Source: a candidate division WOR-3 bacterium (GTDB taxonomy: Bacteria; Hydrothermota; Hydrothermia; LBFQ01). From it: a stretch of DNA of 64,000 nt. A model generated the notes under the pieces. It saw nothing but the letters and a program-made list of their open reading frames with translations, made no database searches and was not told where the DNA came from. The position numbers and the translations under genes are program-made. This document shows positions 42,564 to 50,793 of this stretch, piece after piece (the stretch's first letter is position 1; the number at the start of each line of letters is the position of its first letter). The stretch is taken from positions 24,128 through 88,127 of the forward strand of contig JALWYV010000001.1 in the NCBI GenBank assembly GCA_027003075.1, read 5' to 3'.

Positions 42564-42908
42564 TTATAAGGAAGTTCGCGGCTTTTTTCGTGGCAGGTCA
42601 GAAGTATCTATACCGTACTTGCTCAGGTAGGCCCTTACGAGAAGTTTGAAGAACTTCGTATGTTTCCCGTCCATCAGCTTAAGATGAACCAGCTCGTGTA
42701 CTATCACCTCGTGGCGGAATCGGGCGGGTTGTTTGAGCAGCTCGCTGTTTAAGGTGAGCCTCCCCCTCGTTGAGACGCTCGCCCACTTGCGTTTCATCGG
42801 CCTTACGTGTATCTCCCTCAGCCTGTCCTCAACCCCTATTCTCCTCGCCCATGTCCAGACCTCGGCGATGAGAACATCCCGCATTACGTCATCCCTCATA
42901 TCTCTCAT
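42564..42908 (-). CDS. YgjP-like (DUF45/M48-family) zinc metallopeptidase, short form
   Basis: 'HEVIVHELVHL' is the HExxH motif. It overlaps the hsdR 3' end by 20 nt, a known hsdR-associated position. Confidence 0.65.
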   Translation of the reverse strand: MRDMRDDVMRDVLIAEVWTWARRIGVEDRLREIHVRPMKRKWASVSTRGRLTLNSELLKQPARFRHEVIVHELVHLKLMDGKHTKFFKLLVRAYLSKYGIDTSDLPRKKPRTSL

Positions 42909-45804
42909 CCTCTATCCTCCTAAGTAATCTGAGTATGTCGTTCGTCCACGGCACGACGTCCTTTATTCCGGCCCCAAGGAGGATTTTGTAAATCCTCTTC
43001 CTAAGTCTCCCCTCCTGTGTGGAGCTCCTGCCCCAATAAGGGAACTCCTTCAGGGCTTCGTCTATACCGGTGGCCAGTTTTTCGGAGGTTTCTGGATCCA
43101 TTTCCTTCTGCACGCGCATCCACCACTTTACGGCGAAGGCCTTGCCGGAGAGATGGGTTTCCTTCATCTGTCTCCGGGCCTCCTTTATTTCCCTTACGAG
43201 CCTTTCCAGTTCCTTCAGGGCCTGCCTGCTGTTTATCTGTCTCTCCTCAAAGGCTTTCCTTATCCTCTCCGCCCTCTCTCCTATGGGAATGAGGTAGGGT
43301 TCTTCCCTCCCTTCCTGTGCCACCAGCCGGGCTATGGTGTTCAGGAGGTTGAACATCCTTACGGTTTCGGGTGTGTGTCTTGCCGCAAGGAGGGTCTCAA
43401 GCGTTTCGGGGGTTATCTCGTAGGTTTCGTTCAAAAAGTTAAGCTTTGACGTGTGGGTGTTCCTCTGTACTATCTCAGCCGTTTTCCTGAGGAAGGATTT
43501 ACTGACGTCAACCTTCGGATCGTAGGCGTTTCTGAGTACCCTGTACATCTCCGCCAGTTTCCTGTAGTCCTCTATGAAAGGGCGCAGGAAAGGGTCCGGG
43601 GATATTACCTCGTAGAGTTCCTGAAGTTCGCGGAAGAACCTGTAAAACTCCTCCCTCTTATCCCTGTCCCGAAACCTCTCCAACAGGGCATCGGCCATCC
43701 TGTCGGCGCTCCCCACGTTGAGAAAACTCAGGTATTCCGTTTTTCCGGCCCGTATCAGCTCCGCGAAGCGCTCCTTCAGGACGTCAATCCCCTCCACGAC
43801 CCCCTTTATGTCCTCGGAGTCAAAGGTCAGCGCCCTCTCAAGGTTGTCAAATATGCCGACGAAGTCTATTATCAGGCCGTTGGTCTTCTTGCGGCCGCTT
43901 TCGTCCTCGTAAGGGCGGTTCACTCTGGCGATGGCCTGAAGGAGGACGTGGTCCCGCATGGGTTTGTCAAGGTACATGGCGTAGAGGATAGGGGCGTCGT
44001 AGCCGGTCAGGAGTTTTTCCGTGACGATGAGGATCTTAGGGTTTTCGTCGGGTTTCCTGAAGGCCTTCCTTATGCGGGTCTCCTCCTCGTCGTTCAGGTG
44101 GTAGCGCTTCAGATGGGGAGGGTCGTTGTGGCCCCGGCTTATCACGACCTCGCTGTATTCAGGGGGCAGGTACCTGTCCAGAGCCTCCTTGTAGAGGACA
44201 CACGCCTCCCTATCCACGGCCACAAGGAAGGCCTTGTACCCCATAGGTTCAACGTTGTTTTTGAAGTGATCGGCGACGAAACGGGCGATCTTATCCACCC
44301 TCTCGCTGTTCTTCAGCATGTTTTTGAGCCTGACAGCCCTATCCAATACCCGGTTTATCTCCTCAATGTCGGCCACCCCCTCAAGGGCAGCGGCCTCCCA
44401 GAACTCCTTTTCCATGGTCACCCTGTCAACTACGAGGTCGTTCGGTGCCATCTGGTAGTAGAGGGGAACGGTCGTCCCGTCCTCTATGGACTCCTTTATG
44501 GAGTACTTGTCAAGGTAACCCCTCGGAGGGTCGTCTGCTCCGAAGACCTTGAAGGTACCCTTCCCCTTGCTCGTCTTGTCTATCGGCGTGCCGGTGAATC
44601 CTATAAACGTGGCGTTGGGGAGCGCCCCCATAAGGTAGTTTCCGAGGTCCCCGCCCGTTGATCTGTGGGCCTCGTCTATCAGGACGATTATGTTGGAGCG
44701 GGTGTTTAGATTGGCGTCCGCTTTATCAAACTTATGGATCATGGAAACTATCAGGCCGCGGGTGTCACTCTTGAGGAGTTCCCGCAGGTGTCTTTTGCTC
44801 TTCGCAACGTGAAGGTTGCCGAAGCCCACGGCCTCAAGGTTCTGGAAGAGCTGTTGCTGGAGTTCGTTCCTGTCCACTATCATGAGGACGGTGGGGTTCT
44901 CAAATCTCGGGTCCTCCAGTATCAACCTCGCAATTGTTATCATGGTGTAGGTCTTACCGGAACCCTGCGTGTGCCATACGAGGCCGCGCCGTTTTATGGG
45001 GTCTCTTGCCCTGCCTATAACCTTCCTCACAGCCCGCATCTGGTGGGGTCTCAGAACGACTTTGGAGAGTTCCCCGTCTCTGCGTACGAACAGGATATAA
45101 TCTCTCAGGACCTTCAGGACCCTCTGCGGAGATATAAAGGTTTTTACGAGGGTCTCAAAGTCCCCGGCCTGCTCATCTTTGTAATTGAACAGCGCCTTTC
45201 TGGATAGGTTCCACGTGGGTCCGTAGAAGAACCGGACCCGGTTCGTCAGGGCATATATCTGGCTCTGAACCATGAGTTCGGGGCCCTCTTCGTGGTACCT
45301 GCGTATCTGGTCGTGGGCCTCCGGTATCCCCTCCATCTTCGTGGGTGATTTGGCCTCAAGGATTATTACGGGTATGCCGTTGATGAGGAAGACGACGTCA
45401 GGCCGTATTACGGCCGCACCACTGACAAAACGGAACTCCTCCGTAACGTGGAACGTGTTGTTGCGTGGATTTTTGAAGTCAACGAGACGGACGTTCTTCT
45501 CCCTTTTCTCCACCTCAACGAAAACGGTTTTAAGGCCCTTCAGGTACTCCCACGCCTCGTAATTCCCCTCTATGTTGAGCTTCACCCTTACGAGCCTGTC
45601 TATTACCTCTTCGGCCTTTGTCCTGTTCGTTATGGTAGTGGGGTTGAGTCTCTGAAGCTGCTCTATCAGGATGCTCCGCAGTACGGGGCTGCTCTCCCCT
45701 CCCCTCAGTCTCAGGGCCTCGTCCGGAGGAAGGTACTCCCAACCCACCTCTTGAGCGTGCTGTATTATCGGGTTCTGAACGGTGTGGCGTTCGGAGAACA
45801 TCAC
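42889..45804 (-). CDS. hsdR: type I restriction enzyme R subunit
   Basis: 971 aa with an N-terminal nuclease domain and SF2 helicase motifs ('WHTQGSGKTYTM', 'IVDRNELQQQ', 'DEAHRS'). Host-like GC content. Confidence 0.9.
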   Translation of the reverse strand: MMFSERHTVQNPIIQHAQEVGWEYLPPDEALRLRGGESSPVLRSILIEQLQRLNPTTITNRTKAEEVIDRLVRVKLNIEGNYEAWEYLKGLKTVFVEVEKREKNVRLVDFKNPRNNTFHVTEEFRFVSGAAVIRPDVVFLINGIPVIILEAKSPTKMEGIPEAHDQIRRYHEEGPELMVQSQIYALTNRVRFFYGPTWNLSRKALFNYKDEQAGDFETLVKTFISPQRVLKVLRDYILFVRRDGELSKVVLRPHQMRAVRKVIGRARDPIKRRGLVWHTQGSGKTYTMITIARLILEDPRFENPTVLMIVDRNELQQQLFQNLEAVGFGNLHVAKSKRHLRELLKSDTRGLIVSMIHKFDKADANLNTRSNIIVLIDEAHRSTGGDLGNYLMGALPNATFIGFTGTPIDKTSKGKGTFKVFGADDPPRGYLDKYSIKESIEDGTTVPLYYQMAPNDLVVDRVTMEKEFWEAAALEGVADIEEINRVLDRAVRLKNMLKNSERVDKIARFVADHFKNNVEPMGYKAFLVAVDREACVLYKEALDRYLPPEYSEVVISRGHNDPPHLKRYHLNDEEETRIRKAFRKPDENPKILIVTEKLLTGYDAPILYAMYLDKPMRDHVLLQAIARVNRPYEDESGRKKTNGLIIDFVGIFDNLERALTFDSEDIKGVVEGIDVLKERFAELIRAGKTEYLSFLNVGSADRMADALLERFRDRDKREEFYRFFRELQELYEVISPDPFLRPFIEDYRKLAEMYRVLRNAYDPKVDVSKSFLRKTAEIVQRNTHTSKLNFLNETYEITPETLETLLAARHTPETVRMFNLLNTIARLVAQEGREEPYLIPIGERAERIRKAFEERQINSRQALKELERLVREIKEARRQMKETHLSGKAFAVKWWMRVQKEMDPETSEKLATGIDEALKEFPYWGRSSTQEGRLRKRIYKILLGAGIKDVVPWTNDILRLLRRIEDERYEG

Positions 45805-46313
45805 AGGAAGATATTATATACGATTTGAGCGACCATAAATATTGCCGTAACCAAATACATACAGGCAAAAATTTTGGGAATTAGTGCCTCATAAGAGGTA
45901 AACGGCTTATAAATTTTGGGATGTTTCCCTTGTTTTAATATTTCCCATTCCGCGGTATATGGCTTCACTGGTAGATAATTTTCTAAAGCATGTATAACCT
46001 TAAATTTGCCGCTATTCATTCGTTTATATGAATTTATAAGATCCCCCCATAGCATTGCTATTGCGAATCCTACTAATGAAGCGGGGATTATGAAAAGTGC
46101 ATTTGATGTTTTAAAGGAATACATTATCACCCCGAGAATGGCTGAGTTGATAGTTATGAATAAATTATTCGTCTTATGCCGTCTTTCGCTTATATTGTCC
46201 GTCATTTTTACATAAAGTTTATAAATTTCTAATAGATGATCTTCATATTTATTACCATATCTCTCTTTTTCCAAACCCCTTATAAAATTCGAAAGTTCCA
46301 ACTCCTTATGCAT
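45801..46313 (-). CDS. small three-helix membrane protein (170 aa), candidate effector partner of the TIR protein
   Basis: Three hydrophobic helices (LFITINSAILGVIMYSF, LFIIPASLVGFAIAMLWGDLI and the C-terminal IFACMYLVTAIFMVAQIVYNIFL). It overlaps the TIR gene by 8 nt and hsdR by 4 nt, and is AT-rich. Confidence 0.5.
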   Translation of the reverse strand: MHKELELSNFIRGLEKERYGNKYEDHLLEIYKLYVKMTDNISERRHKTNNLFITINSAILGVIMYSFKTSNALFIIPASLVGFAIAMLWGDLINSYKRMNSGKFKVIHALENYLPVKPYTAEWEILKQGKHPKIYKPFTSYEALIPKIFACMYLVTAIFMVAQIVYNIFL

Positions 46314-46725
46314 TTGCCCATTTTCGTATTGCTCTAACTATAGATTCTGTATTCCATCCAACAATCTCATTAGCGTTTTCCCTTACTTTTCTGGATATTT
46401 TAATCTGACCTCTTGGAACTATTGCAATAATTGGTTTAGGAATTGCAAATTCTTTCTTCGCTATTAATATTTCCTTCTGTATCCATTTACTGTATGTTGC
46501 ATATACTCCAGCCAAAACTAAAACCACATGGCATGATTTCATCTGGTTCTTTATGGCTTCATAAAGTTCTCTATCACTACCGGAGGTATGAATAGGATCA
46601 TCTGGGGGAACAGAATAATCCTTAAATTTAAAATATTTACGCTTTTGTAGGAGATTTATTAATCTCCTATAATGATCCTCATATGTCCATGAATGGCTGA
46701 TAAACAGGTTATACGTCTTTACCAT
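46306..46725 (-). CDS. TIR-like domain protein (DUF1863, Thoeris ThsB-like)
   Basis: 'YNLFISHSWTYED...' matches the ThsB 'VFFSFHYQD' start. '...SKWIQKEILIAKKEFAIPKPIIAI' matches ThsB 'RRWVRYEIMKSIEKGNKIIGI'. 139 aa and AT-rich. Confidence 0.65.
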   Translation of the reverse strand: MVKTYNLFISHSWTYEDHYRRLINLLQKRKYFKFKDYSVPPDDPIHTSGSDRELYEAIKNQMKSCHVVLVLAGVYATYSKWIQKEILIAKKEFAIPKPIIAIVPRGQIKISRKVRENANEIVGWNTESIVRAIRKWANA

Positions 46726-46748
46726 TTTTTGCCTCCTTTAGGTAGATA

Positions 46749-47528
46749 TTATAAGCCCGGATGAACGTCAAGTGGGCAGCTCTCAACCCTCCACCTGAAT
46801 ATTTCATGCTGGACCTCCACAGCCGAACGGTTATCCTTTATGACACCCGCCCACTCCCACGAGAATTCAGCTCTCTTATCCCCTTCAACGAACTTCAAAA
46901 ATCTTCTAAAGGCGATAAAATAATGCTGTACAAGTGATTTGAAAGTATCCTTCGCCTCCATCAAAACGTTCTCTTTTATGCTGATTTTATTTTCCATCCA
47001 GAACATAAAAACGAAGAGTAAAACCTCAACCTTAAGGGACAGATTTATAGAGTCTTTTAGACTCTCCGCTATCTCCGGTCTGTAGATCAAGATAATCGCC
47101 CAAACGGGATGTGAAAACATGGAACGCATAAAATCCGGGTACGTTATACTTTTGAAGTCAAAACTTTTGAATTCTTCAGGTGATTCGTTCAAGACCGTAC
47201 GGATTAGTTTGGATGAGGATTTAACGATCGGTACCAGATAGTTTTCAACATAGGGGAACATATCTATAAGCTGCGGATGGTCTTTGAACCCCTCACCAAT
47301 CCGTTCTATTCCCTCAACTATATCCACTCCCTCCCATTCTTCTGCAAGTTTAGAAAGGACAAGGAACCTTATCTGAAGCAAGGTCGTTAATATTTCCTTA
47401 TCCTCCAACATCTCTGACACATCTTCGTGGCTCTCAACCAGCTCCCTGAACCTCTCAATCAACTCCCTCCCCTTCTCGTCTTCCATCTCCTCAATCATCC
47501 CCGGCGCCAAAATCTCCAACATAGGCAC
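46749..47528 (-). CDS. hypothetical protein (259 aa) inside the defense island
   Basis: ORF with AT-rich codon usage like its neighbours. Contains an 'RELVESH' (R-x5-H) motif of uncertain meaning. Confidence 0.45.
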   Translation of the reverse strand: MPMLEILAPGMIEEMEDEKGRELIERFRELVESHEDVSEMLEDKEILTTLLQIRFLVLSKLAEEWEGVDIVEGIERIGEGFKDHPQLIDMFPYVENYLVPIVKSSSKLIRTVLNESPEEFKSFDFKSITYPDFMRSMFSHPVWAIILIYRPEIAESLKDSINLSLKVEVLLFVFMFWMENKISIKENVLMEAKDTFKSLVQHYFIAFRRFLKFVEGDKRAEFSWEWAGVIKDNRSAVEVQHEIFRWRVESCPLDVHPGL

Positions 47529-47530
47529 GT

Positions 47531-48877
47531 TTATTTTACAGCCGAACCGTCCCCCTCAAACTGCTTGACGAACTCCTTTGGCAGACGCCTTCGGGCCGTT
47601 AAGAGGTCGTGGAGGAGGGTTTTAAAGAGCGTATCTAACGCTTCCACCTTCTTCCTCTCAGCCTCTATTTTGTCATCCACGGCCTTCAGAATTTCGGCTA
47701 TGTGTTTCTGCTCGTGGAGAGGAGGGAGGGGGATGGGGAGAGAAATTAAAAGTGACTTTGGAAGTCTTTGCCGTCCCGTCGTTCCTTCCATCTTACTCGA
47801 TAGATTTTGGCGAACTTTTGGATACTTCAGATAATATGCTAGATAAAACAAATTCAAAGAGCTTTTTTCGTCTGTCCATATTGGAAAAACTTCTGTCGTA
47901 GCGTAACCCCATTCTCCGGGAATACTCTTAACTATTCCCTGTTTTCCGTTCTCAAAACTCGGTGTTATTCGTGCTACCAGTAAATCCCCTTCTTTTACCA
48001 AAACCCCACTTTTAACGTCCTCCCTGCGTCTCATCTCCCACCGCTCTATAAACATAAATTCATCAGGGATAAGACTCATAGGAATGAATGGAATACTATC
48101 CCCACTTAACTTTACCCCTTTGTGTCCGATCTTTACCACCTCCCCCAACCGCACCACCTCCCAATGTTCCGGGATCTTTCCGACTTCCGTTTCCTTCAAC
48201 TTCACCTTATCAACCTCGTCAAGAGGCACGGGGCCGTAGGTGAATAGGTGCCTCATCAAAGACTTCTTGAGTTCCTTGAGAGCCTTTATAACGTTTTCGG
48301 TCTTCTCCTTCGCCTCCTGCACAGCCCTTAAGACGTAGGCGATGGCCCTCTGCTCCGGTAGAGGGGGGAGGGGGAAAAGAACTTTCAGAAAATCTTGGGG
48401 CTTTAGATTTTTTCTCCTGTGGACGACGTTGGAAGCAAAACGCATGTACTGGGAAATCATAAAAGGTTGTTTAACTAACCAGTTAAGAAAATCTAGATCT
48501 ACATCCTTGCGAACTATATCCCACACGTGATAAGCCGGACTCACTGCTCCGATGGGATAATTAGAAACCGCAAGAACACCTTCATTGATGGGAAATCCAT
48601 ATACAAGTTACCCCTTTAACACCACTTTATAATTACTTATATCGCGTCCTGCCACCCTTTTTTTAAATTTTTTAAACTGGGGTATCAATCCGTCGTATCT
48701 AGTAATGGAGAGTATAATACCCTTAAAACTTTGCTCTAAATCCTTTACACGTAGTGAGCTTTTCCTAAACAAATCAGCCCCTTTGACCACCTCCCACTCC
48801 TCCGGCAAAGGCCCTAACTCTGTCATTCTGTGGCCGGGAGGGAAATTGTTAGATTTAATCATTTTTGTTCTGTTCAT
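47531..48877 (-). pseudogene. hsdS: type I restriction specificity subunit HsdS interrupted by one in-frame TAA
   Basis: The 89-aa ORF (48608-48877, 'LPEEWEVVKGADL') and the 337-aa ORF (47531-48544) share one reading frame. They are separated only by a TAA at 48608-48610 and 21 sense codons. Together they make about 448 aa with two target-recognition domains. Confidence 0.6.
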
Positions 48878-50519
48878 GTTGTGTTCCTGTTTTAACTAAA
48901 TGTTTTATCTTGTCAATCATATTTTTTATGTATGTCCATCCCTCGTGATCCCGGTCCGGATCCAATCTCCGTACCGCTTCTCTTGCTATAAATGGTTTAC
49001 CTGTAGATCCTTCATCTTTTGCTTTCTTTTCTAATTCTCTATAATTCGGGAAATATTGCCTCATAGCATTTTCAAAATTTTTCCCAAATATAGTAAACTT
49101 ATCCTCTACAATCCAGTCATTGGCTGATATCAAATCGCCAATTTCATTTTCGTCGTTTATTCCTACTGAACGCAAAACATCTTTACGTTTTATTCCTTGC
49201 TTGTCATCTGTTATATCGTTGTCAAAAATAATATATGTAGGTATACCGTAAGAAGTAAAAAATCTATACCATTTAGCAAGATTTCCCTTGCCGCCTACAC
49301 TTATTATAGCAATACCTTCTTTTTCCAATTGAAAGTACTGCTTTTCAAAAAGTTCTGGCAATGCAAATACTTCAGTAGGCCCTTCTACAAGTATTATAGC
49401 ACGTGCGAAAAAACCTGAAAGAATTTCAGGGGATGCATGAACACTGTAATACGGGATTACCGTGTCTTCATTAACCTTATCGGAAGGAGCCCCTAATTTT
49501 ATAAGACTGTTGGACAGATCTTTGCGGGTTAACTGTCGGGTCCTTGTAGCACCGTTCTCCTTATATACAAGGACTAATCCTTCCAAGTTTTCTATTGATA
49601 GAAATTCAGGGCTATGGGTTGTTATGAGTATTTGGAGTCCCTCCTGAGCTCTGCTGCGGAGCTTTTTGGCAAGCCATTTTTGTGCAAGCGGATGCAAATG
49701 GGCTTCAGGTTCTTCAATAATTAGCAGTATTCCACCGTGAAAGGCTTTTGCATAAGAGTATGCAAGTGTTAGAGCCAAAATTTGTTGTTCACCAGTCCCC
49801 ATCTCTTCCAGAGAAACAACAGTCTCCCCTTCTATGGCTTGTAGTTTTAATGCATGAAAGTAATTTGCTGGATTATAAGCTTCAAAATCCACTTCAAGAC
49901 GATGCTGCATTCCATCAATCATATCATTAAACTCTGTTTGTAAATCATCAACAAATTGTTTGAATGGGGATATCTTGAGAAATTCTTCTTTAATTTGTTC
50001 GAATAATCCATTAAGGTTATTTACTACCTCATTGTGTTCTTTTAAATGTTTATGGAACCTTCTCATAATTCTACTAAGCAATGTCCATTTAGAAGAATAG
50101 CTCAGGTGATAAGAGAGGTTTCTTTCTGCTTCAACCACAACTGCAATGCAGTCTTCTCTATCTTCATTTCTAATATATCTTGCTTCTCCGTGACTGATTC
50201 CTTTATAATACACCGGAATATCTTCTAATGGATTGTATCGCCATATGATAGCTTCAAACTTCCCTGCAAGAGGAGGATCAAATTTTGCGCTAATTTCAAT
50301 CGTATTACTCCTATCTCTACCGAAAAATTCAAAATCTTCAGGGTCGTAATTACCTGGCCAGACAGGCCCCAGAAGTAACCGTATCGCTTTGACTATATTA
50401 GATTTTCCGGCATTATTTTCTCCTATTAATACTACATGACCTGTTTCAGGAAAAACTATTTTCACAGGATCCTTAATAGAACGGTATCCCGAAATTCTTA
50501 TTTCCCTAATCCTACCCAT
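48855..50519 (-). CDS. OLD-family ATP-dependent endonuclease (ABC-type ATPase plus C-terminal TOPRIM), single-gene class 1-like
   Basis: Walker A 'GENNAGKSN', Walker B '[13 protein letters not shown]', H-loop '[10 protein letters not shown]'. The C-terminal TOPRIM has 'ILVEGPTE' and 'IFDNDITDD'. AT-rich. Overlaps hsdS by 23 nt. Confidence 0.8.
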
Positions 50520-50793
50520 TCTCCCCCTCCATCCTAACCCCCAGTACCCTCAACACCTCCCACAACCTCCTGTCCGCCTCCCTCCTCTCGTCCTCCACGA
50601 TCTGCAGGGCCACATCCCGGCTCCCGTACTCCATCGCCAGGGCCTTTATCTCGTCCTCAAAGACGTCCGAAAGGCGCTTGAGGAAAATGAGTGGCAGTAT
50701 GTAGTCCTTGAACTTCGGGGCGTCAATCGGCCCCCTTATCACCGAGGCGGCTTCCCACAACCAGTTTTCAAGCGTCTTTATGCTCAACGCCAT
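50512..50793 (-). pseudogene. hsdM: HsdM N-terminal domain remnant (93 aa); the methyltransferase domain is absent
   Basis: '[41 protein letters not shown]' is the HsdM_N signature. The ORF ends in a divergent tail whose TAG overlaps the OLD ATG (ATGGGTAG). accD follows immediately, so no catalytic domain can be present. Confidence 0.55.

Follow-up and report, generated by a model that had tools for sequence, protein, structure and literature searches.

Within a 64,000 nucleotide (nt) stretch of contig JALWYV010000001.1 of a candidate division WOR-3 bacterium (the window), two overlapping genes on the minus strand encode a ThsB-like TIR protein of 139 amino acids (aa) and a 170 aa membrane protein of the PF24838 (8xMP) family. 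The two genes probably form a horizontally acquired antiphage cassette of the Thoeris (TIR-signalling) family, in which a signal derived from ADP-ribose (ADPR) would open a membrane assembly of 8xMP. An earlier reading made from the nucleotide sequence alone (the sequence-only reading) had described them as a Thoeris-like pair, which is supported here by the presence of a ThsB-type TIR domain with its catalytic glutamate and of a conserved partner; the TIR motifs it quoted, and the coordinates, lengths and overlap of the genes, were all correct upon re-reading of the sequence. Its proposal of a new, minimal effector architecture did not hold, since a '3TM' effector class with the same TIR cluster had already been listed by Yirmiya et al. 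(bioRxiv, 3 December 2025, doi 10.64898/2025.12.03.692087).

A ThsB-type TIR protein with a conserved catalytic glutamate

The TIR gene (46306–46725, minus strand) has an ATG startcodon, with a Shine-Dalgarno sequence (AGGAGG, 46732–46737, minus strand) 6 nt upstream, located in the 23 nt gap after the gene for a 259 aa protein. It encodes a single-domain protein matching the Pfam family PF08937 (ThsB_TIR) with E=3.7e-16 (59.8 bits, cut-off 21.2), as well as ten ThsB models of PADLOC, with PDLC00418 as top match (1.4e-11). A profile built from 41 TIR sequences encoded next to 8xMP relatives (partner TIRs) matched the PDB entries of BcTir (8fz9, 1.9e-13) and ThsB (6lhy/9b7d, 1.8e-8). Residues 7–17 of the window protein read LFISHSWTYED, and W81 and E85 are also present. 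In the alignment of the 41 partner TIRs, F8, E85 and W124 are invariant, with E85 aligned to E85 of BcThsB (6lhy) and to E79 of PsTIR, for which the E79Q mutant lost defence; the codon of the predicted catalytic Glu85, assigned by alignment to ThsB-type TIRs, is at 46471–46473 (minus strand). By these alignments the protein is a ThsB-type domain carrying the catalytic glutamate, and the ThsB-like assignment made previously is borne out by the Pfam and PADLOC matches together with this residue, on whose conservation the sequence-only reading had made its proposal depend and which was found to be invariant.

The membrane partner is a member of the 8xMP family

The predicted effector gene is located directly downstream (45801–46313, minus strand, ATG startcodon), and encodes a putative inner-membrane protein with three transmembrane (TM) helices. 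This 170 aa protein matches PF24838, described as 'octameric membrane protein family, 8xMP', with E=1.5e-36 (125.6 bits, cut-off 30) over positions 1–134 of the 136 positions of the model. All 35 aligned homologues also match PF24838, and an exhaustive profile search of 1.84 billion proteins gave 4,292 cluster representatives of the family at E≤0.001. Given the profile matches of both proteins, neither open reading frame (ORF) of the pair is to be taken for a chance ORF.

There was no match of the 170 aa protein in NCBIfam or among the models of PADLOC v2.0.0, and SLOG, SIR2, Macro, SAVED and CARF domains were absent from both the 170 aa and the 259 aa protein in searches of Pfam, NCBIfam and PADLOC, in agreement with the earlier observation that the membrane protein has no recognisable nucleotide-binding domain. 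Searches by sequence gave no solved relative of 8xMP, fold searches gave no significant match, and the source of the 'octameric' family name was not found in literature searches.

An AlphaFold2 model of the 8xMP monomer, based on 35 homologues, had a mean predicted local distance difference test (pLDDT) score of 86, with helices at residues 23–68, 72–111, 118–125 and 136–169, while hydropathy analysis gave hydrophobic stretches at approximately 51–68, 74–92 and 148–170. Model and hydropathy together support the three TM helices that had been predicted from the sequence. Residues 1–50 and 93–147 each contain 10 lysines and arginines, and based on hydropathy and charge distribution, the N-terminus and the 93–147 loop are predicted to be on the cytoplasmic side. 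The family alignment (A1) contains 19 invariant columns, all of which except W89 are within these predicted cytoplasmic segments (Y31, K32, Y34, V35, R45, Y96, G102, K103, F104, K105, E111, L114, P115, E122, W123, Y135, E142 and P146). With 18 of the 19 invariant residues in two positively charged cytoplasmic segments, the description of this protein as a 'bare' membrane protein no longer fits; since its predicted cytoplasmic face is small, basic and highly conserved, 8xMP is probably not just a membrane anchor. The invariant K32, R45, K103, K105, E111, W123, Y135 and E142 are a hint of a ligand face, and are candidates for mutagenesis.

A fusion of TIR and 8xMP was sought in ten unusually long PF24838 members, none of which had a second domain, and their extensions are probably miscalled starts.

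Conservation of the gene pair in bacteria and archaea

The TIR and 8xMP genes overlap by 8 nt (ATGCATAA, 46306–46313, minus strand), with the TIR gene ending in GCA AAT GCA TAA and the 8xMP gene starting with ATG CAT AAG, an arrangement consistent with translational coupling. A scan using one genome per species identified 367 loci with 8xMP relatives, of which 80 were fetched and 75 were informative (≥400 bp upstream of the 8xMP gene). The fetched loci (individual loci in other genomes are given L numbers below) represent bacterial phyla including Patescibacteria, Chloroflexota, Pseudomonadota, Cyanobacteriota and Actinomycetota, and also archaea. In 60/75 informative loci, 8xMP was directly preceded by a TIR-like ORF in the same orientation, mostly with a spacing of −16 to +18 nt, and three further loci had a TIR gene nearby in a different arrangement. 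The conservation of the membrane partner next to TIR genes, on which the sequence-only reading had also made its proposal depend, is thus confirmed across many bacterial and archaeal phyla, and the partner did not turn out to be a known, unrelated membrane protein.

The partner TIRs form two clades with only 17% identity between them, one with the motif FISHSW.Y, as in the window, and the other with FISF(D/A).., and the 8xMP partners of these two clades share 39% identity across the groups. Between the identity matrices of the TIRs and of the 8xMP proteins there was a weak correlation (Mantel r=0.34), a value reached by 0/2000 permutations.

Several loci show variations in this arrangement. 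Two tandem TIR genes precede a single 8xMP gene in L054 (4991–5955), L069 (2458–3317) and L068 (11655–12408), which resembles the Thoeris loci with multiple ThsB genes. In L089 (5840–8492), a 433 aa TIR_2 protein and an LD_cluster3 protein are encoded before 8xMP, in an island that also encodes TIR-NB-ARC-TPR and TIR-WD40 proteins; 8xMP can therefore also occur together with TIRs of other classes, and with a second putative effector. A cultured strain, Synechococcus elongatus IITB6, carries the pair on plasmid pIITB6_1 (29382–30310) with a 4 nt overlap (L085, 2561–3489), where the 8xMP gene is labelled 'hypothetical protein' in RefSeq. Mesophilic hosts of the pair also include Variovorax (L044), Novilysobacter (L023) and Rhodoferax (L052). 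The twelve loci lacking a TIR gene next to 8xMP, with 455 bp to approximately 6 kb of upstream sequence, are L006, L007, L033, L047, L049, L051, L055, L064, L066, L070, L077 and L080. A TIR gene is present 1.2 kb upstream of 8xMP in L077, and in L033 the 8xMP gene is located between hsdM-like and hsdS-like ORFs.

Correspondence to the '3TM' class and comparison with other Thoeris types

Yirmiya et al. scanned approximately 600 million proteins, annotated 29 putative Thoeris types and validated types V to XI, according to their preprint. Fig. 1C and Table S1 of that study contain an effector category '3TM' with at least 100 rows and with TIRs from cluster 2734565194. Of the Table S1 sequences that were compared with the window TIR, the best-matching ones were three of these listed '3TM' TIRs, with identities of 63% (2620551849), 61% (2676542066) and 57% (2595430680). 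A sequence search showed that IMG 2620551849 is 100% identical to the search hit P0272, the gene of which overlaps a downstream PF24838 gene by 8 nt in three contigs (L091–L093). Because this listed TIR gene precedes a PF24838 gene with the same overlap as in the window, the '3TM' class is, as far as gene order and family assignment can tell, the 8xMP family, which was directly established for one listed entry. By the same comparison the window pair is a member of this catalogued kind and not a new architecture: it has TIR cluster 2734565194, effector family PF24838 and the 8 nt overlap in common with the class, there was no structural difference, and the window copy is distinguished by its location inside a type I restriction-modification (R-M) operon of a metagenome bacterium with a guanine plus cytosine (GC) content of 55%.

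A further argument against novelty comes from the membrane effectors without SLOG or Macro domain which the preprint describes as validated, namely ThsF/DUF2270 with three TM helices, ThsH/SLATT and an ion channel. Elsewhere in publications on defence systems, the label '3TM' also occurs for Guanyin GuyA, Rst_Hydrolase-3Tm and Rst_2TM_1TM_TIR, which are unrelated.

The type V effector ThsF (DUF2270/PF10028), which responds to 3′cADPR (cADPR, cyclic ADP-ribose), resembles 8xMP in being small, having three TM helices and lacking a classical sensor domain. The AlphaFold3 prediction given for ThsF in the preprint is a ring with positively charged pockets, and 8xMP likewise has a positively charged, conserved cytoplasmic face. 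However, a PF10028 hit was absent from the window protein and from all 35 8xMP members, even at E≤10, and ThsF and '3TM' are separate effector classes in the lists of the preprint. The type VII system (ThsB with ThsH SLATT, signal cADPR) also has some TIRs in the same cluster and a membrane effector without SLOG or Macro domain that is predicted to oligomerise, but SLATT is a 2-TM domain, and the window protein had no SLATT hit, with marginal hits in 3/35 members (E 0.044–2.8), each well short of the threshold. On paper 8xMP thus resembles ThsF and ThsH, while its profile matches place it in neither of the two families.

The nearest characterised TIRs are those of type IV, which combines a TIR with a caspase-like protein and uses N7-cADPR. 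EcTIR of this type and the window TIR share 56% identity, with the catalytic glutamate aligned, and the second clade of 8xMP-paired TIRs is up to 50% identical to the type IV PsTIR. In contrast to 8xMP, the type IV effector is a soluble protease and not a membrane protein, and no caspase-like gene is present in the window. With types I and II, which use ThsA effectors with SIR2-SLOG and TM-Macro domains, respectively, the window pair has the logic of a ThsB-type TIR with catalytic glutamate and an adjacent effector in common, but there is no SIR2, SLOG or Macro domain in any gene neighbouring the pair.

A family of 135 aa proteins with three TM helices, encoded directly after type V-like TIRs in Firmicutes plasmids from Terribacillus, Clostridium botulinum and Priestia (L095, 2777–3187; L096, 2838–3245; L097, 2486–2893), has a layout resembling that of 8xMP, with an N-terminal helix, two TM helices, a loop and one TM helix, and had no Pfam hit at E≤10. 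Comparison of 8xMP with these three proteins gave an hhalign probability of only 13.8%, from which we do not claim homology, and the three also lacked a PF10028 hit.

Proposed mechanism and candidate signal

In the proposed mechanism, phage infection would lead the TIR protein to convert nicotinamide adenine dinucleotide (NAD+) to an ADPR-derived second messenger. The receptor of this messenger would be a ring of 8xMP, on the cytoplasmic side of which the N-terminal helix and the 93–147 loop would make up a conserved, positively charged surface for binding; the octameric state of the ring is taken from the Pfam family name only. Binding may then open or destabilise the 8xMP assembly and thereby breach the membrane, leading to depolarisation, failure to support phage replication and abortive infection. 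An effector role of 8xMP would fit with the behaviour of related systems, as TIRs of the same cluster pair interchangeably with proven effectors; according to the preprint, cluster 2734565194 TIRs are also found with the validated caspase-like (type IV, N7-cADPR), SLATT (type VII, cADPR) and CMP hydrolase (type VIII, cADPR) effectors.

As signal we tentatively suggest N7-cADPR as first and canonical cADPR as second guess, both with low confidence. The window TIR is 56% identical to EcTIR versus approximately 40% to the cADPR-producing TIRs of types VII and VIII. Metabolites of EcTIR activate PsCaspase, and therefore both TIR clades can make N7-cADPR; our first guess is thus based on EcTIR being the closest relative and on the two 8xMP-paired TIR clades being the two type IV clades. 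The use of one effector by two very different TIR clades of type IV points to N7-cADPR as the leading signal candidate.

TIR signalling is used in the immunity of bacteria, plants and animals, and mapping of the effectors that respond to TIR products is still ongoing. The TIR-8xMP pair is abundant and is found in both bacteria and archaea, with an effector that has no recognisable ligand-binding fold. If a three-helix protein of approximately 165 aa senses an ADPR-derived molecule, this would represent a new class of receptor and add another validated Thoeris type.

Several points weigh against this interpretation of the pair. In 15/75 loci no TIR gene is located directly upstream of 8xMP, and given these loci the PF24838 family may work with other partners or alone. 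The identity of the signal is proposed from TIR similarity alone, and TIRs within the same cluster make at least two different molecules. The structure prediction for 8xMP was of a monomer, and the ring and ligand pocket are hypothetical. According to the preprint, the '3TM' category was not selected for the experiments of Yirmiya et al., and our literature search found no published experiment on the TIR-8xMP pairing. Finally, the host R-M operon looks decayed, with hsdM reduced to a fragment, and the pair may therefore not be expressed in this genome.

The roles of the two proteins could also be reversed, with 8xMP as a membrane sensor that detects, for instance, the injection of phage DNA or damage by a holin, and the TIR protein as an NAD+-depleting effector. 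This would agree with the absence of a known ligand-binding domain in 8xMP and with the NADase effector TIRs in published descriptions of TIR-STING, PucsarTIR and SpbK, but these occur as fusions with sensor domains, whereas the window TIR is a bare 139 aa ThsB-type domain from a cluster of demonstrated signal producers with swappable effectors. Furthermore, the association of two TIR clades with only 17% identity with a single 8xMP family fits with one effector serving several sensors, and we regard the reversed arrangement as unlikely.

The cassette is inserted in a type I restriction-modification operon

The TIR-8xMP pair is part of a chain of genes on the minus strand, consisting of an hsdS-like gene (47531–48544), the gene for the 259 aa protein (46749–47528), the TIR and 8xMP genes, hsdR (from about 45801–45804 down to 42889) and a gene encoding a YgjP-like peptidase (42564–42908). 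The start of hsdR overlaps the stopcodon of 8xMP (TGATG). Scans with consensus sequences showed no promoter-like or terminator-like sites above chance flanking the pair, which is therefore probably co-transcribed with hsdS, the 259 aa gene and hsdR.

The GC content of the TIR gene (0.338) and the 8xMP gene (0.333) differs from that of hsdR (0.545) and of the whole window (0.546). The two genes are bracketed exactly by the copies of a 14 nt direct repeat (TATAATATCTWCCT on the minus strand), which has two matches in the 64 kb versus 0.04 expected, with two matches being reached in 0/100 shuffles. The upstream copy (TATAATATCTACCT, 46740–46753, minus strand) overlaps the stopcodon of the 259 aa gene, and the downstream copy (TATAATATCTTCCT, 45805–45818, minus strand) covers the final codons of 8xMP and stops directly ahead of the hsdR start. 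The repeat was absent from the syntenic locus L086 of a sister genome. Nucleotide homology to this locus (97.4%) has its start precisely at position 45801, and is picked up again at the 3′ end of the 259 aa gene. The repeat may represent a target-site duplication or a recombination site, and because of the difference in GC content (33% versus 55%) and the flanking repeats, we conclude that TIR-8xMP is a low-GC insert, probably acquired horizontally, in the slot between hsdS and hsdR of a type I R-M operon.

The genomic context of the pair was inspected for defence genes in a sample of the 8xMP loci. In four distant loci, L046, L054, L068 and L069 (Dehalococcoidia and a Proteobacteria metagenome-assembled genome), the pair is flanked by hsdS and hsdR in the same orientation, and in L071 (Patescibacteria) it comes directly after hsdS. 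In L090 (7600–8522) it is inside a BREX operon, between the gene for a 1157 aa protein following BrxB and the gene for a PglX-like methyltransferase, while a weak match to PglZ is present where the locus ends; in L087 the pair is next to GmrSD, a methylase and an integrase. The pair is also found standing alone on plasmids, and R-M genes were present within 6 kb in approximately 6/80 TIR-8xMP loci, with most loci lacking these.

In the prr locus, the slot between hsdS and hsdR is occupied by the abortive-infection gene prrC. The prrC gene of EcoprrI shares with TIR-8xMP this position in a type I R-M operon, which recurs in five other TIR-8xMP loci, whereas the proteins are unrelated. By analogy, the pair could act as a guard that the type I R-M complex keeps inactive, and that would be released once this complex is knocked out by an anti-restriction protein of a phage, with the 259 aa protein as possible adaptor. 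The recurrence of the hsdS-hsdR placement and of the position after hsdS would agree with such a function, as would the PIN gene, another toxic module, which occupies this slot in L086 downstream of a homologue of the 259 aa gene. This explanation is nevertheless quite improbable, as few of the loci have R-M genes within 6 kb, the pair also occurs alone on plasmids and inside BREX, hsdM of the window is only a 93 aa fragment, and unrelated defence genes are common passengers of R-M and BREX operons. It is similarly improbable that the hsdS-hsdR slot is a recurrent docking site at which abortive-infection cargo (TIR-8xMP in the window, PIN in the sister genome) is functionally coupled to the restriction complex, with the mosaic 259 aa protein as a cargo-matched adaptor. 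If true, this would link TIR signalling to the guarding of restriction enzymes.

The small size, overlap, mobility and low GC content of the two genes are also features of addiction modules, and the PIN-domain gene in the syntenic slot of L086 encodes a typical toxin fold. In a toxin-antitoxin module, 8xMP would be a small membrane toxin restrained by the TIR-like protein, stabilising a genomic island without nucleotide signalling. The invariance of the catalytic glutamate in approximately 40 diverse partner TIRs instead indicates an enzymatic function, and the nearest TIR relatives are experimentally signalling enzymes, making such a module highly unlikely when compared with a TIR-signalling cassette.

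The neighbouring 259 aa protein and other genes of the window

The sequence-only reading had suggested, as alternative, that the 259 aa protein (46749–47528, minus strand) is the equivalent of ThsA. This gene is absent from 78/80 of the fetched 8xMP loci, with a single strong match in L001 (76–80% identical), and its 39% identical homologue (261 aa) is found in L086, where TIR-8xMP is replaced by a PIN-domain gene in a syntenic hsdS-X-hsdR operon; from this distribution, the gene is assigned to the R-M slot and not to the TIR module. The protein has no family in Pfam, NCBIfam or PADLOC, its model is entirely alpha-helical (pLDDT 72) without a significant fold match in the PDB, and a search of 5.8 billion proteins gave three hits only, which were the protein itself, the 76% identical copy of L001 and the 39% identical homologue. 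It is therefore hardly credible as a ThsA-equivalent effector or sensor, in spite of its location on the same strand, 23 nt before the TIR gene, and its GC content (0.436) being lower than that of the host.

The hsdR, YgjP and 244 aa proteins of the sister genome are 97–99% identical to those of the window, and in the hsdS-hsdR slot (L086 1412–2681 versus window 45801–47528) the 259/261 aa gene is a mosaic, with 93% nucleotide identity at the 5′ end, 82% at the 3′ end and a diverged middle part. In L033, which lacks a TIR gene, an unrelated 268 aa protein with a weak hit to the 259 aa protein (E=0.0094) is encoded beside 8xMP.

The defence genes of the window are hsdR, hsdS and a gene for an OLD nuclease. 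The latter, an AAA/TOPRIM nuclease of the OLD family with low GC content, is encoded at 48855–50519, next to an 89 aa hsdS fragment (48608–48877), which is followed by the 337 aa hsdS ORF. The hsdM gene is reduced to a 93 aa HsdM_N fragment at about 50512–50793, and genes for RF-1 and ParAB, which identify the host as a bacterium, are also present in the window.

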